This document shows, piece after piece, positions 2,194 through 48,401 of a stretch of DNA of 64,000 nucleotides. Positions within the stretch are counted from its first letter, which is position 1; every line of letters begins with the position of its first letter. The stretch is from the NCBI RefSeq assembly GCF_053078305.1, contig NZ_CP166879.1; one strand, 5' to 3'. Position numbers and translations under genes: made by a program. The notes below the pieces were generated by a model. It worked only from the letters and a program-made list of their open reading frames with translations, was not told the DNA's origin and did not search any database.

Positions 2194-2281
2194 GGTGAGG
2201 TGTCCGAGTGGCTGAAGGAGCACGCCTGGAAAGTGTGTATACGGCAACGTATCGGGGGTTCGAATCCCCCCCTCACCGCCA
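2194..2281 (+). tRNA. serX: tRNA-Ser (anticodon GGA) with long variable arm and encoded CCA
   Basis: GGTGAGG...CCTCACC acceptor stem, anticodon loop CTGGAAA, GGTTCGAATCC T-arm, 88 nt; position between ghrA and ycdU matches serX. Confidence 0.9.
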
Positions 2282-2294
2282 TATTTAAAGAAGA

Positions 2295-2322
2295 GCTCGT
2301 ACGAAAGTACGGGCTTTTTTTT
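2295..2322 (+). terminator. Rho-independent terminator after serX
   Basis: gctcgtac-gaaa-gtacgggc hairpin followed by an 8-T run, read directly. Confidence 0.7.
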
Positions 2323-2463
2323 CGTATATTGCACACACCGGGTGCCCCCGCCCACGTCTGTTAGGGCGAGGGGAAATCGTGAACATCAACTGTCTGGTTG
2401 CTCAGTCAACAATCAAAATGCGCAAGAGAGTACAGAACATATATGCGTTATCTGGTCACTTCC

Positions 2464-3450
2464 TCACTTATTAAAATGCCCCCAACGGAAATACATGTCA
2501 CATGCCATCATAAAATCGTTATGCCAGAGGAATCGACAATAGAAAAAATAGTAAATTAAGCACGGTACATAGCAGAGTAAAAAATAGGCTTCAAACCAAA
2601 TCCGCCATTCCACAAGCGTTGCCAATACCGACACCAGCGTAATCCACATCACTTCAATAACCAGCAATATGAATAACCGAAGCCAAAGCGGCTTGGCAAA
2701 AAAGGTCGACAACGCATTTTCACTGGAGAAAAACAGATCGATTTCCTGCAAAAAAAGCCTGCCCAGAAAAGCGTACCGCCTGGAGAAGCGCAGAAAAAAC
2801 AGATTAATCGCCAACACTACGCCACAAAGAATGAGCAATGCAATTATCGATTTAAACGTTAACCACTGCCCCTCTATCACAAAAGAATCACTGTTACGCA
2901 ACGGGCTGATAGTAAGCAAGTTAACAACCGTTGAGATGCACACCGAAAGCAGCACATAGCGAGTCAGACTTTTATATTTTACTTTTTTCGCTACTGAAAT
3001 AGCGACCTGCTTGACATAACTGGTGCGGATCATCCGAAACAGCAGAAAGATGACCAACGGCCCAAGTAACGAAATCAGGAACAGCGCATATAACGAGGGT
3101 AGAAGCTGGTATAGCCCCCAACTCATTGCACTCAACATGATTAACGACAGAAATCCTGCCACCAGAGGTTGTGTAAGAAATAATTCTATTTTGTGGTTCT
3201 GCTTTTTCTTAAACCACGAAAAATCGATATTCTTCGTGACGCATTTATAAGCCCAGTACGCCTTGAGATCAAAAATAAAATTATACAGCACCAAGGCCAG
3301 AATCCCACTAACGACACCAATATCCTCTGATGGAAAAGTAAATCCTGCATTTTTCCAATAAAAGCCTATCAGAATAAGTCCAATAGCATAAATGTATATC
3401 AGACTTCGTTTATCCTGAAAGCGAATAAAAGTTAAATAATCAGGAATCAT
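2464..3450 (-). CDS. ycdU: Polytopic inner-membrane protein YcdU (328 aa)
   Basis: 328-aa highly hydrophobic ORF matching recalled YcdU; its ATG overlaps the stop of the upstream FabD-like gene (ATGA at 3447-3450). Confidence 0.8.
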
Positions 3451-4391
3451 TTGAATACCTTCGCATCACTAAATGCTTTACGACAATGCATAACTCGTTG
3501 CTGATCCACGCCAGCGAAATCATTTAACATATTCCCCAAATAGGGCTTATTACTTATTTCAAGGAAAGCTACCGAGGTTGGCATATTCAGAAATGTATCG
3601 AGAGATTCAGTCCATTTCACCGTATGAGTTAAGTGTAATGAGAGATTTTCTTTGATAATTGACGGAGCGACCTCGCTTTTTGCTGTTACGTTCATCAGAA
3701 CCTGATGCTCTGGCGAAGCGATATCCAGTCCGGCAAGATAATCGCGCATTGCCTGAACGCCGTCTTCCATCAAACGCGTGTGCCAGGCACCGCTCACACC
3801 GAGTTTAACCGGTTCGTATCCAGCGGCCATCAGCAGCGTGGCAAATTCATTCAACGCAGCCTGCGTTCCCCCAATAACCTGCTGGCGCGGCGTGTTATCA
3901 CAGCTAATATCCAGCGCAATGCCTGATTCCGTAATCATCGTCTGCAGTTGTTCGCGGTTGATGCCTTTAACCGCCAGCATTGCGCCTTTATTTCTCTGGC
4001 TTTCGTCATGCATCAGGCTGGCTCTGAAGTGAATCATGCCAAATAGCGTCTCAAGAGAAATAGCTCCGGCAGCGTAGAGCGCACTGTATTCACCAACGCT
4101 GTGTCCGCAGGACCCCACAACCGTTAAATTCTCAAGACGTTCACGGCACAGGGTATAGAGCGTTACATTAATTGCGGTCACCGCCAGTTGTTGTACCGTC
4201 GTTTGAATAAGGCGATTCATCGGCCCTTTCTGACACAGGCGACGCAGGTTCAGTCCGGAAATATCGCTGGCACAATCCCAGATATGTTTTGTACTGGCGT
4301 TGAGATCCCAAAGATCGCTGCCCATGCCAATAACCGGATTACCCTGACCGGCAAAAAGCAGTACTGTCGGTTGTGAAGCATTATTCATCAT
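3447..4391 (-). CDS. FabD-like malonyl-CoA:ACP transacylase (314 aa), intact counterpart of the K-12 ymdE fragment
   Basis: Acyltransferase GHSxG nucleophile motif (GHSVGE) and N-terminal FAGQG motif typical of FabD. Confidence 0.75.
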
Positions 4392-4401
4392 CTCTTTATC
4401 C

Positions 4402-5790
4402 TTATAGATAGTATTTAAAGCCCAAATAAAGGCCTAACGTGTCGCCAAAAAGCGAAAATTCAGAATACCGACTTCCCAGCGCGCTATAGCCACCGGCATA
4501 GGCTTCAAGCTGGTTACTGATAGCGCTGAGCGGCGTGGAATAATGCAGGCCCAGCAACGTGCTGCCATCAATGAGATTGACCACCAGCGAAGGCTGCAGC
4601 GTCGACTCTCCCGCCAGCGGCAGACTGGCCCAGGCGTTCAGATAGTGCTTACCCTGCAGCATCCCCTGATTGGCGGTATTGCTGATTTCTGAAGCCATCA
4701 GGTATTTGTAAGAATCAAATGCCTGATCCAGTGGCGCATAGCCGGTTGTGGTATTGAGGAAGTCAATTAACTCGCGCTGCTGACGCTGTTCAGCGCGCGA
4801 ATAACCCTCGCTCTGAAAGTAATACTCAACGCCAAACACGCTGAAATTATCACTGGTGTACTGCCCACCCAGCGCCAGCTCCACGCCGCTTTCATCTTTC
4901 GTTTCATAGAGCGAATCCGGAAACTGATATTCCTCGACCTGCGCCGTCTCATGGTGGGAAAGATGCCGCCATTGTTGGGAGCGGTGGTAGGCTGCGTCGA
5001 CATTCAGCGTCAGCTGCGGGGTGTAGTGATAACTGTCAGACAGCGCGAGTGACGGCGATGGTCCGAGCCGCACATTGACTGTCGGTGTGTGCTCACCAAA
5101 GCGATGATCGCTGTAGCTCAGCAGATAGGCTTCGTCGCTGTTTCCCTGCTGATTAGCAGACCAGTTGCCAGACGTCACATAGCGTTTGTCGATGGTGGCT
5201 AACTTCGGTATGACGCTCGCCGAAAACGCATAATCGCGTGTATCCAAGTTCATTTTTGCGCCCCACGATGACGCCTGATACGCCGATGTCATTTTGGGAT
5301 CGTGCAAACGTGTCGACTGGAATCCGGTGTAATAATGCGTTTGCAAATCAGAAGGTGAACGCAAAAAGAACATTCCTGACGGCGCGGCAAATTTGCCTGC
5401 TTCAAATTGAACGCTGTCCGAGGCGCTATAGACCAGACTGAGGCGGTTAATTAACGCACGTGTGCGGCTATCATCCGTTTCGAATTTCCCTGCGGGTTTA
5501 AGCGCATATTCGTTTATTCCATACAGATTGAGCTTAAGTTCCAGCGTATTGTCGATTATCGAACAACCGCTGTTGATGCCAATCCCCGCCTCCTGATAAC
5601 CGTTGTGACGTGTGTAGGGATTTTTGCCTGCAATCTGCCAGGCCGAAGCCTGTTTATTGACATAAGACACTTGCTCGTAAAGCGTCACATCGCTGTTTTG
5701 TGCCACCTCGTCACCTGACAGGCAATCCGCCTGTAGCGTCAACGGCAGCGCAACACACAGCAACGAAGAGATCTTCAGCCTGCGTTTCAT
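4402..5790 (-). CDS. Secreted protein, putative outer-membrane beta-barrel (462 aa)
   Basis: N-terminal signal peptide (MKRRLKISSLLCVALPLTLQA), Tyr/Gly/Ser-rich with alternating hydrophobic pattern, aromatic-rich C-terminus; stop overlaps next gene start. Confidence 0.4.
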   Translation of the reverse strand: MKRRLKISSLLCVALPLTLQADCLSGDEVAQNSDVTLYEQVSYVNKQASAWQIAGKNPYTRHNGYQEAGIGINSGCSIIDNTLELKLNLYGINEYALKPAGKFETDDSRTRALINRLSLVYSASDSVQFEAGKFAAPSGMFFLRSPSDLQTHYYTGFQSTRLHDPKMTSAYQASSWGAKMNLDTRDYAFSASVIPKLATIDKRYVTSGNWSANQQGNSDEAYLLSYSDHRFGEHTPTVNVRLGPSPSLALSDSYHYTPQLTLNVDAAYHRSQQWRHLSHHETAQVEEYQFPDSLYETKDESGVELALGGQYTSDNFSVFGVEYYFQSEGYSRAEQRQQRELIDFLNTTTGYAPLDQAFDSYKYLMASEISNTANQGMLQGKHYLNAWASLPLAGESTLQPSLVVNLIDGSTLLGLHYSTPLSAISNQLEAYAGGYSALGSRYSEFSLFGDTLGLYLGFKYYL

Positions 5791-6575
5791 TTCGCACCTC
5801 GCTGAATATACTCTTTGGTGAAATGAAACTCCGGCAGCGATTCCAGACGAACATCGCTGTACTCCATCACTGAATAGTTATTGCCGTGACGAACATCGGT
5901 AACGGTTATTTTCATGGGTCGCGTTTTCCCCAGCACCGGCTGGAAATCCTGATACAACACTTCTTTTATTAACTGGTCATCCTGCGAGTAATAGGCTGCC
6001 TTCCACGGGCGATTATCACCGTCTTTTTCAACGTAATAGATGACCTTCGGCCAGGTGATATCCGCCGATTTACGCACCAGCGCCAGCTTGTAACACTGCT
6101 TTTCAGCACACGTGACTTCCCCCACCAGGGTCGAGTCATAGGCATATTCAAAGTTAGTGACAATGACATCGCCGTTAGAGATTTGCCCAATTAATCTTTG
6201 TTGCCGTGAAATAGGCATAGGACGTCGCAGTTCCGGCGTGTAAAACCATAAATCGTACCAGTCGGAAAGCATGATTTTTCCTTTATCTCGCGGCGGATAA
6301 ATAAAACGCACCAGCGAGCGTGCATCCGCTTTTTCATTACCCTGCGGTTTCATAAAGCGCATGGAAATATCGAGGACCTGTTTATTCTCTGGCTGGGTTA
6401 CGCCCGCTTTATATTCCGTTACCGTCAGCGTGTAACGAAACGGTTTATTCGGCGAACGAATTTCGTCAGCGCGACGAATTATCTCCAGCGCCTTATTATC
6501 TGTGCTCGCCGCCTGAACGCACGACGTAGCGAGCCACAGGCAAGCAAACCACTTGCCGTAAAAAGCCATATTCAT
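5787..6575 (-). CDS. Periplasmic LolA-like lipid/lipoprotein carrier family protein (262 aa)
   Basis: Signal peptide followed by a soluble domain; placement between FtsX permease and OMP as in Lol-like modules; family assignment by composition and context only. Confidence 0.4.
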   Translation of the reverse strand: MNMAFYGKWFACLWLATSCVQAASTDNKALEIIRRADEIRSPNKPFRYTLTVTEYKAGVTQPENKQVLDISMRFMKPQGNEKADARSLVRFIYPPRDKGKIMLSDWYDLWFYTPELRRPMPISRQQRLIGQISNGDVIVTNFEYAYDSTLVGEVTCAEKQCYKLALVRKSADITWPKVIYYVEKDGDNRPWKAAYYSQDDQLIKEVLYQDFQPVLGKTRPMKITVTDVRHGNNYSVMEYSDVRLESLPEFHFTKEYIQRGAK

Positions 6576-6583
6576 AATTAGCC

Positions 6584-7894
6584 CTATGAGAATTTAAATG
6601 CGTCAGAAATATTCAACCGGGAAGCACGTAAAGCCGGTAACACAGAGGCGCCTGTTGCTGTCAAAATGGGTAATACCACCGTCACCCAAATCAATTCCGG
6701 GTTACTGGTTTTTATAAAGGCGGTATAGCCGATGGTTTGTCCCGGCGATGGCGGCATCGCAATACCATAAAGATTAATAATCCAGGCTAACACGCCCCCC
6801 ACCAGCAGGCTGCCGACTGCGCCAATCACACCAATAAAAATGCCTTCTGTCAGAAACAAGCGCGTGACGTGAAGCGGCTTCAGGCCTATGGCACGCAGAG
6901 TGGTAATTTCACGGGTGCGCTCAACAATGTTCATTGCCATCGAGTTGCCGATCATGAAGATGACAATCAGCGCAACAATCAGCTTGATGAAGAAATAGAT
7001 CCCCGATAGCAACCCTTCAACCTGTTGATAAAAGAGTGAAACATCACGCCAGTCTTTGACCACCAGCGGCAAATGATTGCGTTCGATAAATTGACGCAGC
7101 TTTGCGCTAAACGCCGCGGTGTCATCTTCTTTAAGCAGAATAAGCACTTTGCTGACGCCATCCGTACCCATCATGCGCTGCGCGGTGTCCAGCGGGATCT
7201 TCATCGCGACATCGTCATAATCTTTAATGCCTGACTCAAAAATGCCACGCAGTTTTAGCGACAATGCGCCCTGCCCGCCCGCCGTGTTGACCACCATCAC
7301 ATCCAGCCAGTCGTCGTATTTCGCATTCAACGTTTTCGCCAGGCCGCTGCCCAGGGTGATTTCATCACCTTTTACCCGGGAAAGGTCGCTCCCCGCGATA
7401 ATCTTATCGAACGATCCCAGCTTTAAAGCGGGCAATGGCTCGACACCCAGCGCAGAGAAATAGCTGGAGGTTTCGCTCTCGTAATGTGAAATTACGCCAG
7501 TAAACTCCAGTTGCCCGGAGAGCGTGGAAATATCCGTCGCCAGCGTCGGGTCCGACAAAATAGCTTTCTTTAACGCCGCATAATCGGCAATCAGGCTCTT
7601 ATTTTTATTCGACGTTTCAAAATAGTGCTGATTGTAAATCTGCACATGACCAATATTGGTACGAATCGTCTGCTCTTTCAGGATCCAGAAAGAGTAATCA
7701 ATAAATCCGCCATATAAAAAGATCGCCACACCACCCAATACAATAGCGGTTATGGTAGAAAAAGAGCGACGCTTGTGGCGAAAGAGATTCAAAAATGCAA
7801 ATTTGACATCTCGTGAATAAAACAGAACCTGATAAAACACAAAAAACAGGATCAGCAGCAGAACGCTATTAACAGCTAAAATTTCCCCGGACAT
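6584..7894 (-). CDS. ABC transporter permease, FtsX/MacB/LolC-like (436 aa)
   Basis: N-terminal TM helix, large periplasmic domain, C-terminal 3-TM FtsX-like domain (…IVERTREITTLRAIGLKP…). Confidence 0.7.
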   Translation of the reverse strand: MSGEILAVNSVLLLILFFVFYQVLFYSRDVKFAFLNLFRHKRRSFSTITAIVLGGVAIFLYGGFIDYSFWILKEQTIRTNIGHVQIYNQHYFETSNKNKSLIADYAALKKAILSDPTLATDISTLSGQLEFTGVISHYESETSSYFSALGVEPLPALKLGSFDKIIAGSDLSRVKGDEITLGSGLAKTLNAKYDDWLDVMVVNTAGGQGALSLKLRGIFESGIKDYDDVAMKIPLDTAQRMMGTDGVSKVLILLKEDDTAAFSAKLRQFIERNHLPLVVKDWRDVSLFYQQVEGLLSGIYFFIKLIVALIVIFMIGNSMAMNIVERTREITTLRAIGLKPLHVTRLFLTEGIFIGVIGAVGSLLVGGVLAWIINLYGIAMPPSPGQTIGYTAFIKTSNPELIWVTVVLPILTATGASVLPALRASRLNISDAFKFS

Positions 7895-8551
7895 TTACTC
7901 ACCTTTCATCAGCGGCAGCAGTACCTGGGTTAACTCTTCACTATCCCATTCTGGTACAACATTAAAATCCTGCGTCAGCGACTGCGCAAGCGCGGCGTTT
8001 TGCCCTTTAATTTGCGCCAACAACGCATTCGCGTGGGTGGTGTCCTTGCAGTGACGTAATGCGCGATAACGCATCGCCAGAATATGGTCGCGGATCGTTG
8101 TCGCCCATATCGCCGGGTCAGCCAGCATGTGTTCGGTGTCTTTGACTGTCACCACGCAACGCCCTGAATCTGCCGGTAAATAGGCATCTACGCGGGCGCG
8201 TAAATAGCGTACGCGTTGATTTTTCTCCTGCAAATCCACCGCTTCATCCAGCCAGAAAAAGCCGCTTTTGGCGTATTCTGAGGCATGGATAAAATCGTTT
8301 GTTGCCGCATAACCGTCCGCCTGACGCAGTAAGCCATAGGCGTAAAAAACCAGCGCCACCACATTGTGCCTGGCTTCATACTCTTTCTTTAACGCTTCGG
8401 TCAGCGTCGCCAGCGCGGCAGGCTGCGCCGGAAGCCCTTGTTGCAGAACCTGGTTAACGGCGTCGGGAGTTGCCGCGTAAATCTTCGGGGCCAAAAACGC
8501 CGCGTACAAAAAGACGCCGATAAGCAAAAATCCTTTATGCATCTGAGTCAT
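7895..8551 (-). CDS. Signal-peptide-bearing periplasmic protein of unknown function (218 aa)
   Basis: ORF with cleavable N-terminal signal peptide, Ala/Leu-rich helical composition; sits between the ABC ATPase and permease genes. Confidence 0.4.
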   Translation of the reverse strand: MTQMHKGFLLIGVFLYAAFLAPKIYAATPDAVNQVLQQGLPAQPAALATLTEALKKEYEARHNVVALVFYAYGLLRQADGYAATNDFIHASEYAKSGFFWLDEAVDLQEKNQRVRYLRARVDAYLPADSGRCVVTVKDTEHMLADPAIWATTIRDHILAMRYRALRHCKDTTHANALLAQIKGQNAALAQSLTQDFNVVPEWDSEELTQVLLPLMKGE

Positions 8552-9242
8552 GAATCAATACTCCATCCTGAATTTCAACCACTCGCCGCGCCCGCGCTTT
8601 TAATTCGCTGGAGTGCGTGGAAATAACAAATGTGGTGCCTGTCTGCTGATTAATCGTCAACAGCAGGTCCAAAATAGCCTCGCCGGTTGCCAGGTCTAAA
8701 TTTCCCGTCGGTTCATCGGCAATGACCACCATCGGTTCGTGGGCCAGTGCCCGGGCGATGGCGACACGCTGTTGTTGACCGCCCGATAATTGCCCAGGTT
8801 TGCGATCGCCAAAACCGCTTAATCCAACACTATCGAGATAATGCAGCGTCCGTTCAGTGGCTTCTTTTTTACTGAACTGACCATTAAGCACCAGTGGGAA
8901 ATAAACGTTATCGAAAACATTTAATACCGGCATAAGGTTAAAAAACTGAAAAATAAAACCCAAATGTTTTCCACGAATCACAGCCAACTGCTCTTCTGGC
9001 AGTTGGTTCAGTAATTTATTTAAAAATATCACCGTTCCGCTGGTCGGTTTATCAATACCCGAGAGAATATTCAACAGAGTACTTTTACCACTGCCTGACG
9101 GCCCACACAGTGCGAGAAATTCGCCTTTATTGATATCAAGATTAATGCTTTTAAGCGCATCAACCTTTCCTGCCCCAGCGCCATAACACTTATAAATATT
9201 GCTAAGCGAAATAGCGGGCAACGATTTAATAGTAGATTGCAT
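8535..9242 (-). CDS. ABC transporter ATP-binding protein (about 235 aa; start set at MQSTIKSL, ORF track extends to 9329)
   Basis: Walker A GPSGSGKST, ABC signature LSGGQQQRVAIARAL, Walker B VVIADEPT. Confidence 0.8.
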   Translation of the reverse strand: MQSTIKSLPAISLSNIYKCYGAGAGKVDALKSINLDINKGEFLALCGPSGSGKSTLLNILSGIDKPTSGTVIFLNKLLNQLPEEQLAVIRGKHLGFIFQFFNLMPVLNVFDNVYFPLVLNGQFSKKEATERTLHYLDSVGLSGFGDRKPGQLSGGQQQRVAIARALAHEPMVVIADEPTGNLDLATGEAILDLLLTINQQTGTTFVISTHSSELKARARRVVEIQDGVLIHDSDA

Positions 9243-9252
9243 ACGACTGTCG

Positions 9253-10206
9253 TTATCCTTCAAGGTATTCAAGGTCAAAGTAGTGATAACCAAACTGTTT
9301 ATCAGCAATGACCGTACGCATTTTTCCACCGGGCTGAATATGACGGGTTAAATAATCCATACTCAACGCGGGCGTCAGACAACCGCTTTCACCGTAATGG
9401 GCCACCAGGTCGATAACGCCAGCAGCAGGCCGGGACGGCATTTGTTGCCGTTCGCTGAAGGCCATGACATCAATATCCGTAGCATGCTGTGGCGCAGTGC
9501 CGGAATGATATTCCCCGCATTGCAGCCTGATGGCGCTCTCACGCTGGCTGAGAATAAAACAACCCACGCGTTCAACAGATAAATTCACCTCATCAGCGCG
9601 ACGGGGGAATAAACGCTTAGGCGGTTTACCCACATCCTCTTCAGAGAATACCAGTACCGGAATTGCCCGATAGGCAGCGCAAATCACCACGTTATCGAAT
9701 ACATCCCAGGCGAGATAATCCTGCGCCATACGCAGCGCCTGAACGAATGCCTGTTTTTCGCCGCGAATCTTGCAAGTCGGTTCCGTTATCGAAAACTTCT
9801 TAAGTAAATTCTTGGGAAGCGTATCAATAGTGGCGATATGCAGCGCACTGGAAATTTTTTCAAACGAACCGGATTCGCCCCAGGAATCGGCATAAATAAA
9901 TGCCGTGCGCGATTTCATTAACTTCATGCGCTCTTTAGTCGGCATTTGTTGTAATGCAGAATCGGTTACCTGCTCCATCGCCTCAAGGTAAGGCATATAT
10001 TGTGGATTACGGATCCGTTCCGGCGCATAAATATCGTTCTCAACGCCAAAGCGCTTCAGCCCCCAGCCATTAGCACGGGTGCCGTATAATCCCCTTTCGT
10101 ACATATGTGCTTCCCAGGCGTTGAGCCAGGTCGGCTGATAAAAATAAAAAATGTCGTCCGGTTCCGTAAGCGCCCAGGAAGACAGGTAGATACTCTTTTC
10201 CGTCAT
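9253..10206 (-). CDS. Hypothetical protein (317 aa) within the lipid biosynthesis cluster
   Basis: ORF tightly packed between the KS-like gene and the ABC ATPase gene; no motif I can assign confidently. Confidence 0.4.
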   Translation of the reverse strand: MTEKSIYLSSWALTEPDDIFYFYQPTWLNAWEAHMYERGLYGTRANGWGLKRFGVENDIYAPERIRNPQYMPYLEAMEQVTDSALQQMPTKERMKLMKSRTAFIYADSWGESGSFEKISSALHIATIDTLPKNLLKKFSITEPTCKIRGEKQAFVQALRMAQDYLAWDVFDNVVICAAYRAIPVLVFSEEDVGKPPKRLFPRRADEVNLSVERVGCFILSQRESAIRLQCGEYHSGTAPQHATDIDVMAFSERQQMPSRPAAGVIDLVAHYGESGCLTPALSMDYLTRHIQPGGKMRTVIADKQFGYHYFDLEYLEG

Positions 10207-28787: not shown

Positions 28788-30122
28788 ATGTCTAAATCGA
28801 CTTTTTTACACATTCTGATTAGCTCCATCATATTGGTGGCACTAATACAATCATCCGCCTGGGCCACTTGTTCTAATACACGCGTCGGACAAACGGAGGA
28901 CGGAAGATCGGCACTCATTGAGTTCGGAAAAATTAACCTGACCGACACCTATTTTGCGCCAGTAGGCTCACTACTCGCGACAACGGTCGTACCTTCCACT
29001 AACTACACATCAGGTGGCGCGTCAGGAAGCTCCGTACTGTGGGAATGTGACGCAACAGATTTGCCAAACATCTATTTTCTGGTCGCAACCAATGGCGACG
29101 ACCGCGTGGGTGGCTTTCACAATGCAGGCGGGCCTGATGGTCTGAGTGATGTCTATGCCACCTGGTTTGCTTTTGTCGGTCTCAAGCAGACTATGGCGGG
29201 CGTGACGATTGGTCGTTACTGGAAAAAAGTGCCCATCACCAGTTATGCCACTCAGGGAACTAAAATCCAGATCCGCTTACAGGATATCCCTCCTCTTCAT
29301 GCTGAGCTTTACCGTATTAGTACGCTGCCTGATACCGCTGGCGCAACCAGTTACTGCGGTAATACCAATACTGATGGCGACGGTGTGGGGTATGCGAAAC
29401 CCTCCGGCACACCTTATAACTGCACTCAGCCTAATGCCTATATTCAGCTTTCCGGTACCAGTGGTATTCCATTTGCTCATGATGAAGTGGGCGAGGACAG
29501 TGCGGATCACTATGATTTTTGGGGTGCTGATAATGGTTTTGGTTACGGAATGCGTTCGGCCAATCGACTCTACAACAATGCCACCTGCGTTGCCCGCAGC
29601 GCCACGCCGTTAGTATTGCTGCCGACAATTGCAGAAGCACAACTGAATGCGGGCATGGAAAGTACCGGTAATTTTAATGTCCGCGTCGAGTGTAGTAACT
29701 CAGTTCAATCAGGGATTAGTGATACTCAGACAGCATTAGGAATCCAGGTATCTGAAGGTGCATATACAGCAGCGCAAAAACTGGGGATTATCAATAGCAA
29801 CGGCGGAGTCAGCGCCTTAGTCTCAGATAATTATGACGCGGCAGAGATGGCAAAAGGCGTTGGGATCTACATCTCAAACAGTGCTTACCCCGATACGGCG
29901 ATGACGCTGGTTGGTCAACCGGGCATCGCGAAGTTAACCCCCGGAGGAAATGCAGCGGGGTGGTATCCTGTATTTGAAGGGGCAACATTAGAAGGTGCGA
30001 CTCACCCCGGATACTCCAGCTATAGTTACTCTTTTATCGCCCGGTTGAAGAAACTGCCAAATCAGACAGTCAGTGCGGGAAAAGTGCGGGCAACGGCGTA
30101 TATATTGGTGAAAATGCAATGA
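28788..30122 (+). CDS. Putative fimbrial tip adhesin, two-domain (444 aa)
   Basis: Signal peptide, large Cys-containing N-terminal domain plus C-terminal pilin-like domain; position after the usher gene. Confidence 0.5.
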   Translation: MSKSTFLHILISSIILVALIQSSAWATCSNTRVGQTEDGRSALIEFGKINLTDTYFAPVGSLLATTVVPSTNYTSGGASGSSVLWECDATDLPNIYFLVATNGDDRVGGFHNAGGPDGLSDVYATWFAFVGLKQTMAGVTIGRYWKKVPITSYATQGTKIQIRLQDIPPLHAELYRISTLPDTAGATSYCGNTNTDGDGVGYAKPSGTPYNCTQPNAYIQLSGTSGIPFAHDEVGEDSADHYDFWGADNGFGYGMRSANRLYNNATCVARSATPLVLLPTIAEAQLNAGMESTGNFNVRVECSNSVQSGISDTQTALGIQVSEGAYTAAQKLGIINSNGGVSALVSDNYDAAEMAKGVGIYISNSAYPDTAMTLVGQPGIAKLTPGGNAAGWYPVFEGATLEGATHPGYSSYSYSFIARLKKLPNQTVSAGKVRATAYILVKMQ

Positions 30123-30808
30123 AATCCGTTTTGCTGCTCTTAACCGTCTTGTTCGTACAGTCAGTGGAAGCCGGCATCATGCCGGCTTCTTCACGGATTA
30201 TTTATCGCGATGGCGATCGGGAAAAGACGCTGATGTTGGTCAATACCAATGACTACCCGGTACTGGTGCAAAGTTGGGTAGATAATGGTGAAGGCTCCCC
30301 AGAAGCTGCTTCTCCTCCCTTTGTGGTGCTGCCACCGGTTTTCCGCCTGGTAGCGAAACGAACCCAGGGATTACGGATTATCTATAATCATGACCCACTT
30401 CCCCAGGATCGCGAATCTGCATTCTGGTTAAATCTTTATGAAATGCCGCCAGAAACTCCCCATCAAGATCCCACACATTTAACGCTGGCAATGAATACGC
30501 AACTTAAAATCTTTTACAGGCCAAAATCTGTAACTATGACGCCCCAAGAAGCTATGCGTAAAATAAGTTGGCATCTGGGTAACGACGGCAGCAGTAGCTA
30601 TATTGAGCTTAATAACCCAACACCACTGAATATCTCTTTCACCTCCATCAGCATTGGGGCTACAAAGGTGCAGCAAGAAAGCGATATGATGATAAAACCC
30701 TTCAGTCAACGACGGTACTGGTTAGCAAGTAATAACGTTAGTGGTGTGGTTGCGGCGACATATCTCGATGATAATGGTGCACAGATAAAACAACAATTAG
30801 CGCAATAA
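30119..30808 (+). CDS. Second periplasmic fimbrial chaperone, PapD-like (229 aa)
   Basis: PapD-family motifs (RIIYRDGDREKTLMLVN, FWLNL, LKIFYRP); start overlaps the adhesin gene stop. Confidence 0.75.
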   Translation: MKSVLLLLTVLFVQSVEAGIMPASSRIIYRDGDREKTLMLVNTNDYPVLVQSWVDNGEGSPEAASPPFVVLPPVFRLVAKRTQGLRIIYNHDPLPQDRESAFWLNLYEMPPETPHQDPTHLTLAMNTQLKIFYRPKSVTMTPQEAMRKISWHLGNDGSSSYIELNNPTPLNISFTSISIGATKVQQESDMMIKPFSQRRYWLASNNVSGVVAATYLDDNGAQIKQQLAQ

Positions 30809-30953
30809 TGCTCTGAGTGGTATGTAAACTCATCGCGATGGTTCAACGCTAACGAATAACCACTATACCCACCTGGAGTACCGGAAGTGGAGAAATGACA
30901 AAATCTCTCCACTCCATTTTCCAGTCAAAACACCTCAACGCAGCCAAAAATCG

Positions 30954-31745
30954 TTAACGAATTGAATATCCACCATCAATGACTAATAGTTGTCCATTGA
31001 CATAATCTGAAGCGGCACTGGCGAGGAACACCATTGCGCCCATAAGATCCTGTGCCCTTCCCCAGCGTTGAGCCGGTATACGCCCTTTTATTAACTCTTT
31101 TATTTTAGGGTTATTATAAATAATAGCGGTCATTTCACTCACATAATATCCTGGGGCGATACCATTAATCTGAATATTATATTCCGCAAAATCATCGGCA
31201 TACGCTTTGGTCAGCCCCGCTAAAGCATGTTTAGTCGCCGCATACCCTGGCGACCAACGTCCCCCATGAAATGACAATACGGAACACATATTAATAACTT
31301 TCCCTTTTCTTTGCGGGACAAATATATTCAATGCGGCCTGGCTCATATCGAATGCAGCATTCAGGTTGAGATTAATCATCGGATCCCAGTCGTTTCGATT
31401 GAAATCGATAGGACGATTAATGTTACACACGCCCGCGTTATTGACCAGAATATCTAACTGACCGAAACGCTCCAGACACCTATTAATAATGGTGCATGCT
31501 GCATCAGGTTTTGTTATGTCTATTGTCATAAACTCAACTTCAACGCCTTCATGAGTTAAATGCTTTAAATATTTATTATCAGGCTCTTTGATGTCTACCA
31601 ACAACAGATTAGCTCCTGCTTTGGCCAGAGCAGAGCATAAGCCTCTCCCCAGTTCACCCGCGGCCCCAGTTACGATGGCCACCTTGTTATGTAAAGAAAA
31701 AAAATCCAATGAAAAATCTTCAATAGAAAAGCTCATATCACACAT
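30954..31745 (-). CDS. Short-chain dehydrogenase/reductase, KduD/FabG-like (263 aa)
   Basis: TGAAGELGRG Rossmann motif, NNAG, and Tyr/Lys catalytic pair (YAATK). Confidence 0.7.
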   Translation of the reverse strand: MCDMSFSIEDFSLDFFSLHNKVAIVTGAAGELGRGLCSALAKAGANLLLVDIKEPDNKYLKHLTHEGVEVEFMTIDITKPDAACTIINRCLERFGQLDILVNNAGVCNINRPIDFNRNDWDPMINLNLNAAFDMSQAALNIFVPQRKGKVINMCSVLSFHGGRWSPGYAATKHALAGLTKAYADDFAEYNIQINGIAPGYYVSEMTAIIYNNPKIKELIKGRIPAQRWGRAQDLMGAMVFLASAASDYVNGQLLVIDGGYSIR

Positions 31746-32423
31746 TGCTCCTTATGAGTAAGTAATATTTAAGGTGTAATTTAAGTAATTTTTAGATTTC
31801 AATAAAAAACTAAACGTATAAAACTCAGCATGAATAATAAACATCAAATCTTATATATTTTTAAGTAGTGATGCATCACGTAAAAAATATAGTCATCATA
31901 GATGTTATGCAGTACGCACAAAAAAAACAGGCTGGAATTGCTTGCTGATTTATAATCTTTATCTAAATTACTATTGGCGCTTTGGATAATAACATAAGCA
32001 TATATTACCTCCTAGCAATAATAGAGATAACCTCATATCAAGGTGTCACTGGTAAATAATCGGATAAAAGACAGTATCGGTCGGCGCATAGAGCTTCTTC
32101 TATTTCACCAGAAGTGCACAGCAGGAACTACCAATCACACGGTTAGTGTCATGGGTGGAGGATGCGGCCCGTTCTTTCCCTATAACAGGGTTACGCAGTT
32201 TCAATCAGTACATGCAGAAAAACCCCTAATTCACATCACTGCAGAAAGCATTTAATAGAAATATACATCGTTTAAGAATTTCAATTAAATCAAGATTATT
32301 CTTAAAAATCAGATAATTCACATTTGCATTTTTAGGAAATTATACTATAGTGCACTTAATGTTCTTGCCTTTATTTTCTGAGTAATACTGGATTTGTAAT
32401 ACACAACTAAGGTATAAAATGTA

Positions 32424-33236
32424 ATGATCTACATTATAAATGATGAAGTAAGATTCAACTCATCATCTAATAAGTTAACATCACTCCTTACATCAGAGGA
32501 AGTGATACTCACTTATCCTGCGGGAAAATGCTTAAAGTTACTTTTAGATAACGCTTATAGTGTCGTGTCACACAATCAATTCTTTGAAAAAGTCTGGAGC
32601 GATAGCAGTGCCGAAGTCGCAACCAACACTTTATATCAAAATATATCGATGATAAGACGTTCTTTTCGTGAAATCAGCTCAGCGACGATATTTAATGATG
32701 TTATCAGAACGGTGCCCCGTAAAGGCTTCAAAATCAATGAAGAAATCAGCATAACTGTTCTCGACAATAATCACAATGAGAATGAAAGTGTTGAGAGTGA
32801 AGAGAATGGTACCCACACTGAAAATATAAATAAAAATCACATTGCAAAAGGTATATTTACCACAAAGAATACATTGCTTATAGTTTGTTTTTTTGCGGCA
32901 TGGGGGATAGTGTATATATCTTCTTATTTTTTCGATATGGCTTTTCAAAGCAAATCCCACACTATAAAAAAAATAGATGCTTTCTCAAATTATGCTCAAC
33001 ACCCTACTCAGGAAGGATGCAGTTATTTCTATGATAATAAATACTTTAATTCCGTAGACATGTTATCACCGATTATTGAAAAATTGCAGAAGATGGAAAT
33101 TAACTGCAAAATACATCCTTACATTTACATTGCAACAAATGATAGCATGAGCGGATTTTATGCTTTCACCTGTAGTCAGATGTTAAACTCTGAATCACCA
33201 AATAATTGCAACTCTCTCTATTATAAAGCGGAGTAA
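32424..33236 (+). CDS. ToxR/CadC-like membrane-anchored transcriptional regulator (270 aa)
   Basis: N-terminal OmpR/PhoB-type winged-helix segment (…FEKVWSDSSAEVATNTLYQNISMIRR…TVPRKGFKI), one TM helix (LLIVCFFAAWGIVYISSYFF), periplasmic C-terminus; AT-rich. Confidence 0.6.
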   Translation: MIYIINDEVRFNSSSNKLTSLLTSEEVILTYPAGKCLKLLLDNAYSVVSHNQFFEKVWSDSSAEVATNTLYQNISMIRRSFREISSATIFNDVIRTVPRKGFKINEEISITVLDNNHNENESVESEENGTHTENINKNHIAKGIFTTKNTLLIVCFFAAWGIVYISSYFFDMAFQSKSHTIKKIDAFSNYAQHPTQEGCSYFYDNKYFNSVDMLSPIIEKLQKMEINCKIHPYIYIATNDSMSGFYAFTCSQMLNSESPNNCNSLYYKAE

Positions 33237-33240
33237 TCAT

Positions 33241-33732
33241 ATGACTCAAAGATATTTTCTGTTTGCGGGAATAATTTTATGTGCTTTTATTGCAGCAATT
33301 CTGAGCCATATTGCGTTTCATCATGCCAATGAACCAGCAGAGCAAAACATATCATGTAATGCCCATGTTATTAATTTCACCGATCATACAAAAATGGATC
33401 AATATTTTTCGTTAAATATGATTTCTGAAAATAACACAGGAAACATGTATCTCACGGGCGCATACACGGTAGATGGAAAAAAGATGGGCTTCATCCGCCG
33501 ATATGTGAGTTTTACATACAAGAAATTCCGTGATACCGTTTACTTCACCACTGTTAAAATACAAAAAATACAAAAAGATGATAACATTAGTGATGAAATC
33601 CTTGAAAATATCACTTCTGATTTTTTCATAAAAGTAGACACCTCAATTAATTTTTATGTTACACGTCAAAATGATTACAACTACGTATTCTCTACAGGCA
33701 GGACACCACGCTTCATATGTATTTCCCACTAA
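33241..33732 (+). CDS. Small membrane-anchored periplasmic protein, possible ToxS-like partner (163 aa)
   Basis: Single N-terminal TM helix then soluble domain; start 5 nt after the ToxR-like gene stop. Confidence 0.4.
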   Translation: MTQRYFLFAGIILCAFIAAILSHIAFHHANEPAEQNISCNAHVINFTDHTKMDQYFSLNMISENNTGNMYLTGAYTVDGKKMGFIRRYVSFTYKKFRDTVYFTTVKIQKIQKDDNISDEILENITSDFFIKVDTSINFYVTRQNDYNYVFSTGRTPRFICISH

Positions 33733-33833
33733 CAGCATTGTTGCTTCTGGCGTTTGTCACCAGTTAATAACCTTCTGATGGCTTTGTTTATATTTTAAGG
33801 CAATAAAAAACCATTCCAATATTGGTTAATTAT

Positions 33834-35444
33834 TTATCTGTTTACATACCATTGATAAAACTCTGTCGCTTTCATTGGTTTTGCATATAAGTATCCCTGA
33901 ACTAATGTCACGTTATTATGAATAAGATATTCCGCCTGGTGAGGAGTACTGACACCTTCTGCAATCGTTATCAAATTGAGTCGATTACTCAGCTTAATAA
34001 TAATATCTAAAACTGGCGTTTCGTCTTCCGCTGTAGTGAGTGTGTCTATAAAGCTTTTATCTATTTTAAGATAATCAACAGACAACTTTTGCAGAAGGCC
34101 AAGGGAACAATATCCCGTGCCAAAATCATCAACTGCAAATTCACAGCCATGGATCCTTAATTCATTTATTTTCTGTAATGCAAGATCAGTATCTTCAACC
34201 AGATTGCGTTCGGTAATCTCAAGAACAATGTTAAATTTATCAGATATTTCATTTTTAATATGTAAAACATCAGCAACAAAATCAGGATGTGCAAGATGCT
34301 CCGCGGCAATATTTATCCCAAGGTGAAACGGCTTTTTCACTTTCCAGCTTTGTACATCCTGAATAATCAGTTCAAAGAGATGCTTAGTTAACGGTATAAT
34401 TAAATTTTCCTCTTCTGCAGCGCGGATAAAAACTACCGGAGATATATTTTTACCATCTTCGCGTTGCCAACGCATTAACGCCTCAACCCCCAGACACGCT
34501 TTGGTTGTCGTGTCACATACTGGTTGATAATGCACAGAAAATTCTCCGGATGACATTCCTTTCTTAATTTCTTCTGCCAGGGACATTTTCCGAGATATCC
34601 AGCGCTGCCATAAGAAGTACAGAATAAAAGAAAGAAGAATAGATAATGGAAGAATGTAAAATACATTACTAATGACATAGGGATATAATGAAATCATCGG
34701 CGTAGTAACTGTAAGACTAGCCTGACTGATCGCAGAATTAAAATCTTTTTTTAACATATATAACTTGTCATTATTATTTACACCACTAATAATTGCAGGC
34801 CCTTCAGTAAAGCTAAGAGAAAATGAATCATCATTCTCATCATCAAGAACATCCATCAGATCATAGATATATCGTGACTCTACAATACTAAAAGCTGTCA
34901 TATCATTCCCTATTGGCATAAGGAACACTATGGCTGTTTTACCTGGTACAAAACTTGTACCGCTAATTGATACTATGCGTGATTCTTTATTTTTATTGTG
35001 AAAGCTCGTACCGTAAACATCGTTAACATTCATTTTTTTGAAACCGCTAACTGAAGAACATATTTGGAAATTATTTTCTATAAGCCCCGTTGTTCGAACA
35101 TAGGGGGTCAATGCTCCGTTAGCAATCAATTGTTCCAGGATATCTTTGCAGGGTTTCATCACCAGAATAGAAGTAAGCTTTGTCGTATGTTTTACAATTT
35201 GCGTAACATTATCAAGCTGTTTTAACAGAATACCGGCGGTAATTGTCGTATCTCGATTCATTTGAAATACTGACATAGCAAACGACAGTAACACCCCCAG
35301 AATGCCTGGTATTATAATGAGTACAAACATTTTTTTGTTGAATACCATACATGTTTCCCCACGCATCAGGGTGATGCAACCTAAGAAATTATAGTACAAT
35401 TGCCAGTAAAAGCGGGTGATAGCAGACTGATCAATGATAAGCAT
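33834..35444 (-). CDS. Membrane-bound EAL-domain c-di-GMP phosphodiesterase with periplasmic sensor domain (up to 536 aa; start possibly at 35348)
   Basis: Two TM segments flanking a periplasmic domain; cytoplasmic EAL domain with EALMRWQ and downstream DDFGTGYCSL motifs. Gene symbol left blank because equivalence to the O157 vmpA gene is only from memory. Confidence 0.75.
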   Translation of the reverse strand: MLIIDQSAITRFYWQLYYNFLGCITLMRGETCMVFNKKMFVLIIIPGILGVLLSFAMSVFQMNRDTTITAGILLKQLDNVTQIVKHTTKLTSILVMKPCKDILEQLIANGALTPYVRTTGLIENNFQICSSVSGFKKMNVNDVYGTSFHNKNKESRIVSISGTSFVPGKTAIVFLMPIGNDMTAFSIVESRYIYDLMDVLDDENDDSFSLSFTEGPAIISGVNNNDKLYMLKKDFNSAISQASLTVTTPMISLYPYVISNVFYILPLSILLSFILYFLWQRWISRKMSLAEEIKKGMSSGEFSVHYQPVCDTTTKACLGVEALMRWQREDGKNISPVVFIRAAEEENLIIPLTKHLFELIIQDVQSWKVKKPFHLGINIAAEHLAHPDFVADVLHIKNEISDKFNIVLEITERNLVEDTDLALQKINELRIHGCEFAVDDFGTGYCSLGLLQKLSVDYLKIDKSFIDTLTTAEDETPVLDIIIKLSNRLNLITIAEGVSTPHQAEYLIHNNVTLVQGYLYAKPMKATEFYQWYVNR

Positions 35445-35541
35445 TTAAGATCATATAGTACTATGATATTTCTGAAAATTGTTACGCATGTCTGCGAATA
35501 GCTATTTAGCGCTTACCAAAATCACCCGCTAAAATGCCGCT

Positions 35542-36900
35542 TTATGGTGACTCACAAAAATTCACCACATCCCTCACAACCACCTTATTACGCCCGGTCT
35601 CTTTCGCCTCGTATAGTGCGTTATCAGCCAGTCGATAGATCTCATTCGGGTTTAACGCATTTCCCTGAGTCACAACAGCGCCAATACTAATCGTCACTTT
35701 TTGTGGTATGGCGTATTCAGGATTATCACCAGTTAAACGCTCAACATTTTCCCGAATCCTTTCCGCTAAAGCTTTCGCACGTTCAGTATCGATGTCCGTC
35801 AGCAAGACGCCAAACTCTTCGCCGCCGACGCGCGCAAAAAGGTCATCTGGCCGTATGCTTTTCCCAATGATATTCACCACTGTTTTTATCACCTGATCGC
35901 CAATCGGATGCCCCCAGGTGTCGTTGACTTTTTTGAAGTGGTCGATATCCATAAGCATGACGCAATAAGGCGTTTTTTTGGCCGATGCTGATTGAACCGT
36001 CAGTTCATTAAAAAAATAATTTCTGTTAAATATATTGGTTAAGGGATCGCGATGTGCAATGTCCTTTGTTACTCGTAGCGCACTGAATATATGGCACATA
36101 AATATTACCATAACGGTTAACTTACTGACTACTTCAATAGTGCGACTAATATACCAAATGGACACGCTATACCTGCTCATAAATAAAAGAGAGACATTGT
36201 ACAGTACGGCACAAAAAGCAATCACCGTCACTCCATTCCAGATATCATAGCGTAAACCATTAAAGTATAGATTAACCGAAAGCAAGGTTAACCACATGAA
36301 AATCATTATGGTAACATATGAAGCTTTCCAAACCACTTGACCATTTTCATTGGTTAACTCGGCAATGTGTAAATCGTAGCTCTCATAATGGCTAGAAAGT
36401 ATGTGAGCAACTATCGGCCCCCCAAGAACAAAAAACAAACTTATGCACAAAGTCATTTTTTTGGAAAATAAATTGCGCTGTTTTGTGTTTTCACTAACTT
36501 TATTCACCAATGCCAGAAATATTAATATGCACAAACTCATCTGACGAAACAAATAATAAATTGCAATGTCATTTTGAACAACACTGCTTGTCAAACGCCC
36601 CTCAATCATTTGCTGAATGATAATGACGGTTTTAACAAAGTAAATCAAACAACTCAGAAAAGCCAAACTAAGTATACAGTTTGAAAATTGCCTACGGTCA
36701 TAAATGAAATACAACTGCATAAAAATAAATGCAACAGTATCGATAAAAAATAAAGCAATCATTACCATCAGATAGGTTGATAGTGGAACAACCTCCTCAA
36801 CGCCTGGCTGATTAAACCAACTATTCACCAAAACCAAAGCAAGCCCAAACAATAAGCTCACTAAGACAGTACTACTAATTCTCAAATAGTCTTTTTCCAT
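35542..36900 (-). CDS. dgcT: Membrane-anchored diguanylate cyclase DgcT/YcdT (452 aa; ORF track extends 41 codons upstream)
   Basis: Multi-TM N-terminal domain plus GGDEF domain (RVGGEEFGVLL); N-terminus MEKDYLRISSTVLV matches recalled YcdT; divergent from pgaA. Confidence 0.85.
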   Translation of the reverse strand: MEKDYLRISSTVLVSLLFGLALVLVNSWFNQPGVEEVVPLSTYLMVMIALFFIDTVAFIFMQLYFIYDRRQFSNCILSLAFLSCLIYFVKTVIIIQQMIEGRLTSSVVQNDIAIYYLFRQMSLCILIFLALVNKVSENTKQRNLFSKKMTLCISLFFVLGGPIVAHILSSHYESYDLHIAELTNENGQVVWKASYVTIMIFMWLTLLSVNLYFNGLRYDIWNGVTVIAFCAVLYNVSLLFMSRYSVSIWYISRTIEVVSKLTVMVIFMCHIFSALRVTKDIAHRDPLTNIFNRNYFFNELTVQSASAKKTPYCVMLMDIDHFKKVNDTWGHPIGDQVIKTVVNIIGKSIRPDDLFARVGGEEFGVLLTDIDTERAKALAERIRENVERLTGDNPEYAIPQKVTISIGAVVTQGNALNPNEIYRLADNALYEAKETGRNKVVVRDVVNFCESP

Positions 36901-48324: not shown

Positions 48325-48383
48325 GCCACCCACCCTTAAACGTTTTTCTGAGTCAATCTATGCAAAGAAAAGTAAATCGCAGT

Positions 48384-48401
48384 GATAGCGATTATCATTA
48401 C
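48384..48401. promoter_or_regulatory. Candidate Fur box upstream of efeU (GATAGCGATTATCATTAC)
   Basis: Resembles Fur consensus GATAATGATAATCATTATC; lies 60-77 bp upstream of the efeU start codon. Confidence 0.5.

Follow-up and report, generated by a model that had tools for sequence, protein, structure and literature searches.

How has a block of about 32 kb come to stand between ycdU and dgcT in certain Escherichia coli strains when K-12 lacks it? We have analysed this question in a stretch of 64,000 nucleotides of contig NZ_CP166879.1 (NCBI RefSeq assembly GCF_053078305.1), hereafter the window, whose gene order, ycdY-ycdX-ghrA-serX-ycdU, then 26 genes, then dgcT-pgaABCD-phoH, is that of an E. 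coli chromosome segment. A preliminary description, made from the letters of the window, regarded the interval as an ancestral segment that K-12 has lost and not as a recent mobile insertion. Our comparisons point to a history of two steps: the block is very probably O-island 47 (OI-47) in a non-O157 strain, gained by an old insertion at the side of the tRNA gene serX and later lost through a deletion associated with the insertion sequence (IS) element IS3. That is, the loss from K-12 and the lack of recent mobility have stood, while the idea of a segment ancestral to the species has not.

The nearest complete genome to the window is that of a Canadian pig isolate (99.5% identity over 45 kb), and the carrier strain here is a non-O157 E. 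coli. An O157:H7 genome is collinear with window positions 2268-38002 (35.7 kb) at 97.8% nucleotide identity, and all the 27 O157 proteins from YcdU to PdeT align full-length and gap-free, with identities of 93.5-100%. The length absent from K-12 MG1655 is 31,740 bp when the junctions are read directly and 31,727 bp in raw BLAST coordinates, while the published length of OI-47 is 31,727 bp (PMC8565820). The chromosomal position, the 26 genes, their order and their orientation are the same as in OI-47 (z1528-z1556 in EDL933, ECs1272-ECs1296 in Sakai), and so is the site, namely the interval between ycdU and ycdT (dgcT) where K-12 has the ymdE fragment and IS3. Both islands hold vmpA/pdeT, grvA, the fimbrial cluster loc6, the secretion pair otpAB and a set of fatty-acid/polyketide-like genes; in the literature loc6 is ECs1276-1280, otpAB is ECs1282-1283, and grvA is z1531 (PMC8565820, PMC10877973). 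In addition, the EDL933 record is present among the matches of an internal island probe. By sequence comparison, then, the segment is OI-47 of E. coli O157:H7, or S-loop 71 of Sakai; the equivalence, which the preliminary description had suggested, is borne out by the collinearity, the gap-free proteins and the matching length. The OI#47 entry of Perna et al. 2001 is said to list an adhesin and a polyketide or fatty-acid biosynthesis system. The island itself, on record since the first O157:H7 genome, is already known, and in this respect our work adds nothing new. The window copy differs from that of O157 in its host, which is not O157:H7, in a prematurely stopped otpA and in a 444-aa fimbrial subunit diverged by 6.5%; the serX gene of the window also lacks the SpLE1/OI-48 element of O157:H7.

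The whole-locus alignment proposed in the preliminary description has been run against K-12 MG1655 and O157:H7, and an island of about 32 kb is indeed absent from the former (window 3791-35530 lacking) and collinear in the latter. The genes have not been found elsewhere in K-12 either, and an internal probe of 5.8 kb matches 382 of 5,426 complete genomes, once each. Of the earlier estimate of about 28 genes in four modules, all four modules are present, namely lipid synthesis and export (3447-17257), two-partner secretion (17273-22793), chaperone-usher fimbriae (24184-30808) and an AT-rich set with the ToxR-like regulator and the EAL phosphodiesterase (30954-35444). The count comes to 26 between ycdU and dgcT, or 27 with ycdU. 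The limits first drawn, 3447 and 35444, coincide with ends of genes, where the fabD-like gene stops and pdeT starts, and lie about 350 bp and about 90 bp off the K-12 breakpoints.

These breakpoints tell how K-12 came to lack the island. On the dgcT side, the K-12 homology ends at window 35531/35532, 10-11 bp beyond the dgcT stop, and it picks up again at 3790 within the fabD-like gene, the remnant there being the ymdE pseudogene; between the two breakpoints lies IS3D of 1,258 bp. The junction alignment therefore agrees with the ymdE fragment and IS3 noted for K-12 at first sight. In strain SC423 the scar joins 3975 to IS3 and IS3 to 35531, so that ycdU and 528 bp of the fabD-like gene are kept, while the scar of K-12 (3790, IS3, 35531) has the same right end and 185 bp more lost on the left. 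A third form, in AR_0069, joins 3975 directly to 35539 with a GCC microhomology, without IS3 and without the bases AAAT. IS3 normally generates 3-bp target duplications. In the scars its flanks are unequal (GCC against AAA, CAC against AAA) and no 3-bp duplication is present, which indicates that it did not arrive by a simple insertion and fits an IS-mediated adjacent deletion. Moreover, every scar genome bears the island-type 3' end of dgcT. Because K-12 has kept the ymdE stub, ycdU and this dgcT end, and because its IS3 stands exactly at the junction without a duplication, the junction sequences argue that K-12 has lost the island rather than never having had it.

We have also considered the IS3-free junction as the original deletion, with IS3 arriving later. 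This has been rejected: the IS3 forms retain the four island-side bases AAAT that the IS3-free form has lost, and the IS3-free form is therefore derived from the IS3 forms. In the proposed course of events, IS3 would have landed 10-11 bp past the dgcT stop and then brought about an adjacent deletion of about 31.6 kb, leaving ycdU and the 528 bp of the fabD-like gene. K-12 would then have lost the further 185 bp, and a minority of strains would afterwards have lost IS3 via the 3-bp GCC microhomology.

On the other side of the question stand E. coli strains that show no trace of the island. Here serX and its RtT-like repeat units are immediately succeeded by dgcT, with neither ycdU nor the island; the examples read are an O2:K2:H1 strain, AR_0372 and one further E. 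coli lineage. The match of these empty-site loci (L005, L006, L089) to the window breaks off at 2342 and is taken up again at 35576, within dgcT. A divergent Escherichia-like locus, L008, has the same empty layout at 83-92% nucleotide identity, with breaks at 2342 and 35570 according to BLAST; its genome is labelled E. coli and is a separate GTDB species representative. In a second divergent lineage (L090/L091, 92% identity) the match ends at 35578 at the dgcT border, and conjugation or integrase genes come next to dgcT; the 6 kb fetched did not show serX. Among these outgroup loci, L008 was obtained by a contig search with DgcT, which gave mostly generic GGDEF matches, and the others via protein clusters and contig look-ups.

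The C-terminal tail of DgcT gives the polarity. The tail RDVVNFCESP is found in island-bearing and in K-12/scar strains and is confined to these. The alternative tails are KEAEILINRKDDE, KEAEILINCKDDD, KEAEIHINRKDDD and TEAENLMNWKDDD, in proteins with 95%, 89%, 86% and 76% identity to the window DgcT, respectively. A tail like KEAEILINRKDDE is common to the empty-site and the divergent loci, and its divergence parallels that of the rest of the protein. As it has diverged in step with the gene, it should be the original tail, and a deletion could not recreate it. Together with the shared empty-site breakpoints, this implies that the block from ycdU to pdeT was inserted beside serX and overwrote the 3' end of dgcT, displacing about 79 bp of ancestral sequence including the last 13 dgcT codons. 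By this sequence evidence the block is an old insertion and not ancestral at the level of the species. A single old insertion, or a recombinational replacement, probably took place in an ancestor of part of E. coli, after which the O157:H7/O55:H7 lineage and some dozens of further strains would have retained the island. The dgcT of another locus, L088 (64% protein identity), was tried as an outgroup; it lies in a different context and is uninformative on polarity. At L088 4876-8103 this distant dgcT stands beside pgaA and is followed by a gene for a 509-aa CadC-like regulator, which loosely recalls grvA near dgcT.

The site of insertion deserves attention. The preliminary description saw no tRNA target at the flanks, which is incorrect: serX at 2194-2281 lies 182 bp from ycdU, and it is a proven integration site, used by OI-48/SpLE1 (PMC3064760). 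The left junction of the block lies 61 bp past the 3' end of serX (2281 to 2343), inside an RtT-like repeat. In line with what had been described, no integrase or IS is annotated within the block (L001, L003), and the protein scans gave no such NCBIfam match. When the border sequences were read (including 35500-35600), neither a repeat of the serX 3' end nor any other sequence shared by both borders was found. Among the features of an integrase-driven tRNA island, then, the block has the tRNA adjacency, while an integrase at one end and flanking direct repeats are absent. It resembles OI-48/SpLE1 in standing next to serX, in its cargo of accessory adhesin and regulator genes and in its strain-dependent presence. 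OI-48 is an excising element with an integrase of the P4 type and with direct repeats of 14 bp derived from the 3' end of serX (PMC3064760), whereas the block in the window has no integrase and no such repeats, and its junctions lie in the RtT-like repeat and inside dgcT.

Two further observations concern this border. A tyrosine integrase gene stands immediately beside serX in AR_0069 (L004 1742-2944) and in O157:H7 (L003 11638-12840). Strains that differ widely in the state of the adjoining locus thus both have an element with an integrase at serX. In addition, the copy number of the RtT-like repeat varies, from the one 80-bp unit of the window and the single unit of AR_0372 and C 237-04 to three to four units with a period of about 181 bp in K-12, SC423 and empty-site genomes (L002 13041-13505; L007 2470-3100), and each unit includes a pseudo 3' end of the tRNA. 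In the Rfam scan of the window the tRNA was the sole match, the RtT model staying under threshold.

The distribution of the island has been surveyed, as the preliminary description suggested, in the form of a census of the 5,426 complete E. coli genomes, and it is patchy. The island is present in 380-382 genomes, almost always as a whole, with partial forms being rare. ycdU and the ymdE stub occur in 2,600 genomes, island carriers included, and by subtraction about 2,220 genomes should carry deletion scars. The empty serX-dgcT junction is found in 1,398 genomes, and 1,205 have no dgcT match at all. About 220 further genomes have dgcT in some other context, i.e., in additional rearranged states. 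The majority of carriers belong to O157:H7, with 98.3% identity to the window, or to O55:H7; of 60 carriers sampled evenly, about 10 are other strains with 98.5-99.9% identity to the window, and the carriers outside O157/O55 comprise pig, poultry, mink, blackbird, water and human isolates as well as the O157:H16 strain Santai. Reviews have confined OI-47 to O157:H7, O55:H7 and O145:H28. This claim of exclusivity is too narrow, since about one sixth of the carriers among complete genomes fall outside those lineages.

We have further compared the age and composition of the island with those of its surroundings. Between the window and O157:H7, the island shows 97.4-99.5% identity in most 2-kb windows and the flanking core 96.7-99.2%. 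As the divergence of the island equals that of its flanks, the age of the island should match the separation of the window strain from O157:H7. Two stretches dip to 93.5% against about 98.4%, namely 22000-24000, which covers the otpA 5' end and an AT-rich spacer, and 28788-30122, the gene for the 444-aa fimbrial subunit. This subunit is a possible tip adhesin. The GC profile, another check that had been proposed, shows a mosaic block below its flank overall: the block has 46.1% GC and the right flank 50.7%, and the neighbouring dgcT, which is ancestral, has itself 38.9%. By module, the GC content is 49.3% for the lipid genes with ycdU, 47.1% for otpAB, 47.8% for loc6, 33% for the otpA-loc6 spacer and 36.2% for the regulatory module. 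The island is a mosaic of three kinds of material, the 17-gene array, the loc6 cluster and the AT-rich regulatory module, the last consisting of an SDR-family gene, grvA, the gene for a 163-aa protein and pdeT/vmpA.

These data have to be weighed against other histories of the locus. If the island were ancestral to E. coli, and all the strains without it, including the empty type, had lost it by deletion, one would understand that K-12-like strains have demonstrably lost it, that it holds no integrase or IS, and that its divergence equals that of the core. We regard this as improbable, for the empty-site breakpoints (2342 on one side; 35576-35578, and 35570 in the most divergent locus, on the other) are shared by E. 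coli and, either both or the dgcT-side one alone, by lineages at 83-92% identity, the shared DgcT tail has diverged with its gene and a conserved coding tail cannot be recreated by deletion, and no genomes other than those with the island or a scar have the island-type tail. That serX of the window strain received a mobile insertion recently, in the manner of a classical integrase-driven tRNA island, is hardly credible. Although the junction is 61 bp from the 3' end of a proven integration site, and the GC content (46.1% against 50.7%) and the mosaic composition would suit such an event, there is neither an integrase nor a serX 3' end repeat at the far border, the junction lies in the RtT-like repeat and not in the tRNA, the divergence from the O157 copy equals the flank divergence, and the junctions are identical in O157, K-12-type and SC423-type loci.

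The patchy distribution could also have come from repeated transfer of the whole locus, by homologous recombination via the ghrA and pga flanks. The carriers outside O157/O55, which come from diverse sources and are 98.5% to 99.9% identical to the window, speak for this, and so does the heterogeneity of the pga-dgcT region in phylogroup A (PMC4951805). In the one pair examined, however, the divergence of the island agrees with that of the flank, which fits co-inheritance and would also fit co-transfer; we consider repeated transfer a somewhat unlikely source of the pattern. As for our own history of one old insertion beside serX followed by the IS3-associated deletion, several points weigh against it. 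The single origin of the IS3 deletion is read from common breakpoints and not from a tree, and the polarity from three empty-site E. coli loci, two divergent lineages and BLAST counts rather than from a genome phylogeny. The pga-dgcT region recombines, so that the empty allele could in principle have spread horizontally, and the insertion mechanism comes without an integrase, a repeat or a donor site.

The coordinates of the locus are collected in Table 1. The inserted block comprises ycdU, OI-47 and the new 3' end of dgcT. Reading along the + strand, the lipid genes encode a FabD-like protein, a 462-aa protein, a LolA-like protein, a LolC/E-like permease, a 218-aa protein, a LolD-like ATPase and a 317-aa protein, followed by a ketosynthase (KS)-like protein, a fusion of KS and KS-like halves (852 aa), a GcvT-like protein, an acyl carrier protein (ACP), a FabZ-like protein, FabG and AcpS. 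The loc6 cluster holds the genes for a 207-aa protein, the major subunit, a chaperone, the usher, the 444-aa subunit and a second chaperone. In the right flank outside the block, positions 48001-50000 have a low GC content of 41.9% and are 96.65% identical to O157:H7; they correspond to the efeU-putP interval, where O157 has a hypothetical gene.

Table 1. Features of the serX-dgcT locus in the window (positions in the 64,000-nucleotide stretch).
Feature	Position	Strand	Evidence or remark
serX, tRNA-Ser(GGA)	2194..2281	+	ARAGORN; Rfam tRNA model
RtT-like repeat unit, 80 bp, single copy 3' of serX	2263..2342	+	Left junction of the insertion at its end, 2342/2343
Full inserted block, about 33.2 kb, 46.1% GC	2343..35577	.	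Versus empty-site E. coli and the divergent Escherichia-like lineage
ycdU, all-helical predicted membrane protein, last gene of the otp-lipid array	2464..3450	-	
Lipid/polyketide-like synthesis and export genes	3447..17257	-	NCBIfam; RefSeq annotation of L001; Pfam on orthologues
Segment absent from K-12 MG1655, IS3D in its place	3791..35530	.	OI-47 in the strict published sense
otpB, TpsB outer-membrane transporter	17273..18892	-	Annotation; POTRA and ShlB domains (Pfam) in its Kosakonia orthologue, 66% identical
otpA, TpsA exoprotein, pseudogene in the window	18981..22793	-	Amber W697* at 20703-20705
Divergent intergenic spacer otpA/fimbrial cluster, AT-rich, 33% GC	22794..24183	.	
loc6 chaperone-usher fimbrial cluster	24184..30808	+	Annotation; Kosakonia counterpart
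Short-chain dehydrogenase/reductase (SDR)-family oxidoreductase, KduD-like, under the curated cut-off	30954..31745	-	NCBIfam
grvA (z1531), ToxR-like regulator	32424..33236	+	Weak winged-helix/CadC matches; 99.6% identical to the O157 protein
163-aa protein, 4 bp 3' of grvA	33241..33732	+	No match in Pfam, NCBIfam or PADLOC
pdeT/vmpA, EAL phosphodiesterase	33834..35444	-	NCBIfam, Pfam; identified in PMC4287979
dgcT	35542..36900	-	Last 10 codons and stop (35542-35574) inside the inserted block

Apart from its history, the content of the island is informative. From otpA down to ycdU (22793 to 2464) 17 genes share a strand, with intergenic distances between -17 and +88 bp, and ycdU overlaps the fabD-like gene by 4 bp. 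This array is predicted to encode OtpA and OtpB, a dedicated type II system resembling fatty-acid or polyketide synthases (FAS/PKS), an ATP-binding cassette (ABC) exporter like LolCDE/MacB, a LolA-like protein and YcdU. NCBIfam gives matches for the fabD-like transferase, the LolC/E-like permease, the LolD-like ATPase, a weak ketosynthase-like protein, the GcvT-like protein, the ACP, a FabZ-like dehydratase, a FabG-like reductase and AcpS, and the 852-aa protein consists of a FabF-like half and a second ketosynthase-like half. That is, ketosynthase, ACP, ketoreductase, dehydratase, malonyl transferase and phosphopantetheinyl transferase are encoded by separate genes, as expected of a type II FAS/PKS. 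As nearly all of the NCBIfam scores are under the equivalog cut-offs, these should be dedicated paralogues and not the housekeeping enzymes. Neither an enoyl reductase nor a thioesterase was recognised in the array by the NCBIfam scans.

Six proteins of the block, four of them encoded by the array and two by other parts of the island, belong to no recognised family. The 462-, 218-, 317-, 207- and 163-aa proteins and YcdU have no family in NCBIfam or PADLOC; Pfam gave nothing for the three submitted or for orthologues, and the sequence search of the PDB gave nothing for the three submitted. The family of YcdU is tiny, with 48 clusters among 1.84 billion representative proteins, and its confident all-helical membrane model gave no informative fold match.

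The head of the array is a two-partner secretion (TPS) pair, with PF05860 in TpsA and PF08479/PF17287/PF03865 in TpsB, as detected on orthologues that are 61-66% identical. It resembles known systems such as FhaB/FhaC and ShlA/ShlB in that a TpsA with a TPS domain is followed by a TpsB with POTRA and ShlB domains. OtpB has been shown experimentally by others to secrete OtpA, and OtpAB falls in neither the adhesin nor the haemolysin subtype of two-partner systems. It differs from FhaB/FhaC and ShlA/ShlB in heading a lipid-synthesis array, both here and in other genera.

The nearest known type for the rest of the array may be the aryl-polyene-type clusters, which combine type II PKS-like genes with LolA-like and exporter genes and place their lipid in the outer membrane. 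Like these, the array has its own ACP, a ketosynthase paired with a ketosynthase-like protein, a ketoreductase, a membrane exporter and a LolA-like protein, together with a hot-dog dehydratase whose orthologues give a weak ApeI-like Pfam signal. In contrast to the aryl-polyene clusters, the exporter of the array is of the ABC type resembling LolCDE/MacB, and there are in addition a GcvT-like protein, an AcpS and a FabD belonging to the array, the four family-less proteins and the leading two-partner pair.

The same gene order has been found well outside E. coli. Orthologues of the 852-aa ketosynthase with 55-89% identity occur in many Enterobacterales and also in genomes labelled Aeromonas, Acinetobacter and Neisseria. 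Kosakonia radicincitans has the whole order, TpsA, TpsB and AcpS through to the FabD-like protein and YcdU, at 53-87% protein identity, and there the five loc6 fimbrial genes stand divergently upstream of the array. An earlier clinical report noted only the shared fimbrial operon in Kosakonia (PMC5258702). The order of all 17 genes recurs, loc6 being absent, in Klebsiella aerogenes and Acinetobacter sp. ANC 4558. In a genome labelled Neisseria sp. genes 1 to 16 of the array are likewise collinear and no ycdU gene is called, and Proteus mirabilis has TpsA and most of the lipid genes. By tblastn, YcdU orthologues close the array in Kosakonia (53%) and in Klebsiella aerogenes (40%), and in Acinetobacter a 333-aa gene stands at the YcdU position. 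The conserved order of otpAB, lipid genes, exporter and ycdU across genera is new here. It suggests that ycdU is the last gene of a horizontally spread cassette, while the grvA/pdeT module lies outside the cassette; beyond E. coli, no relative of PdeT exceeds 56% identity.

From these arrangements we put forward, with confidence divided about equally for and against, that the 17 genes, i.e., otpAB, the lipid genes, those of the exporter and ycdU, constitute a single functional cassette (about 20 kb). Lacking a mobility gene of its own, this cassette would have passed from one order of Gammaproteobacteria to another, and probably also into a betaproteobacterium, and would make a surface lipid working with or modifying OtpA. 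In this pathway AcpS would prime the dedicated ACP and the FabD-like enzyme would load the extender units, so that the ketosynthase pair, the reductase and the dehydratase could build an acyl or polyene-like chain on this ACP. The Lol/MacB-like ABC system and the LolA-like protein would then carry the product toward the outer membrane, where the exported chain would probably act together with OtpA. The secretion pair persistently stands at the head of the array, which suggests a joint function with the lipid genes; we put the chances of this at about even.

Some observations count against the cassette as one working unit. Serratia rubidaea, in a more distant group at 57%, has the lipid genes without the secretion pair upstream, and both the co-transcription of the 17 genes and a functional link between OtpA and the lipid genes are putative. 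When the island was scanned for consensus promoters and terminators, the number of sites did not exceed that in shuffled sequence, so that these scans bear neither way on operon structure. Furthermore, the array is decaying in the lineage of the window strain, as seen from the amber codon of otpA (TGG to TAG; L001 and O157:H7 have an intact gene), the FabD frameshift of L001 and the deletion in strain ES5. The FabD-like gene is frameshifted both in L001, the closest genome (3447-4381), and in ES5 (L097 15232-21602), where an internal deletion has taken the stretch from the gcvT-like gene to otpB and otpA is frameshifted as well.

The remaining modules can be assigned more readily. In loc6, the usher, chaperone and subunit genes lie in one cluster, as in chaperone-usher systems (annotation; Pfam on the Kosakonia counterpart). 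Directly 3' of the major subunit gene, at 25417-25445, there is a hairpin with a 12-bp stem and a T-rich tail, which is typical of an attenuator between subunit and chaperone genes. PdeT, by way of its E. coli cluster, has PF12792 and PF00563, i.e., an N-terminal CSS-motif periplasmic domain and a C-terminal EAL domain as in the PdeC-like CSS-domain phosphodiesterases; against NCBIfam PRK10551 it scores 312 bits, the cut-off being 461 bits. It degrades cyclic di-GMP and affects motility and biofilm (vmpA was identified in PMC4287979). GrvA acts via GadW/GadE on the locus of enterocyte effacement and on acid resistance in enterohaemorrhagic E. coli (PMC8565820, PMC10877973). As for a role of the island as a whole, the Sakai region was enriched, as a bacterial artificial chromosome clone, in a screen for binding to spinach roots, in which deletion of loc6 had no effect. 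Because of this enrichment, and because plant-associated Kosakonia bears the same block with loc6, a role in the colonisation of plant or other surfaces is possible.

Overall, three parts of the island have been studied before, namely vmpA/pdeT, grvA and otpAB. The unit that was gained appears larger than the published island, as it adds ycdU and the last dgcT codons and lies beside a tRNA hot spot. Among the nearest relatives that we analysed, OtpAB always heads the array for lipid synthesis and export, which gives a testable lead to the function of OtpAB. The ycdU and ymdE of K-12 are leftovers, the stranded 3' end of the island cassette. The pair ymdE-ycdU has been proposed as selected 'mastitis core' genes (PMC4951805), and its origin as island leftovers bears on that proposal; if the cassette is real, K-12 ycdU and the 'mastitis-core' pair would be its stranded 3' stubs.

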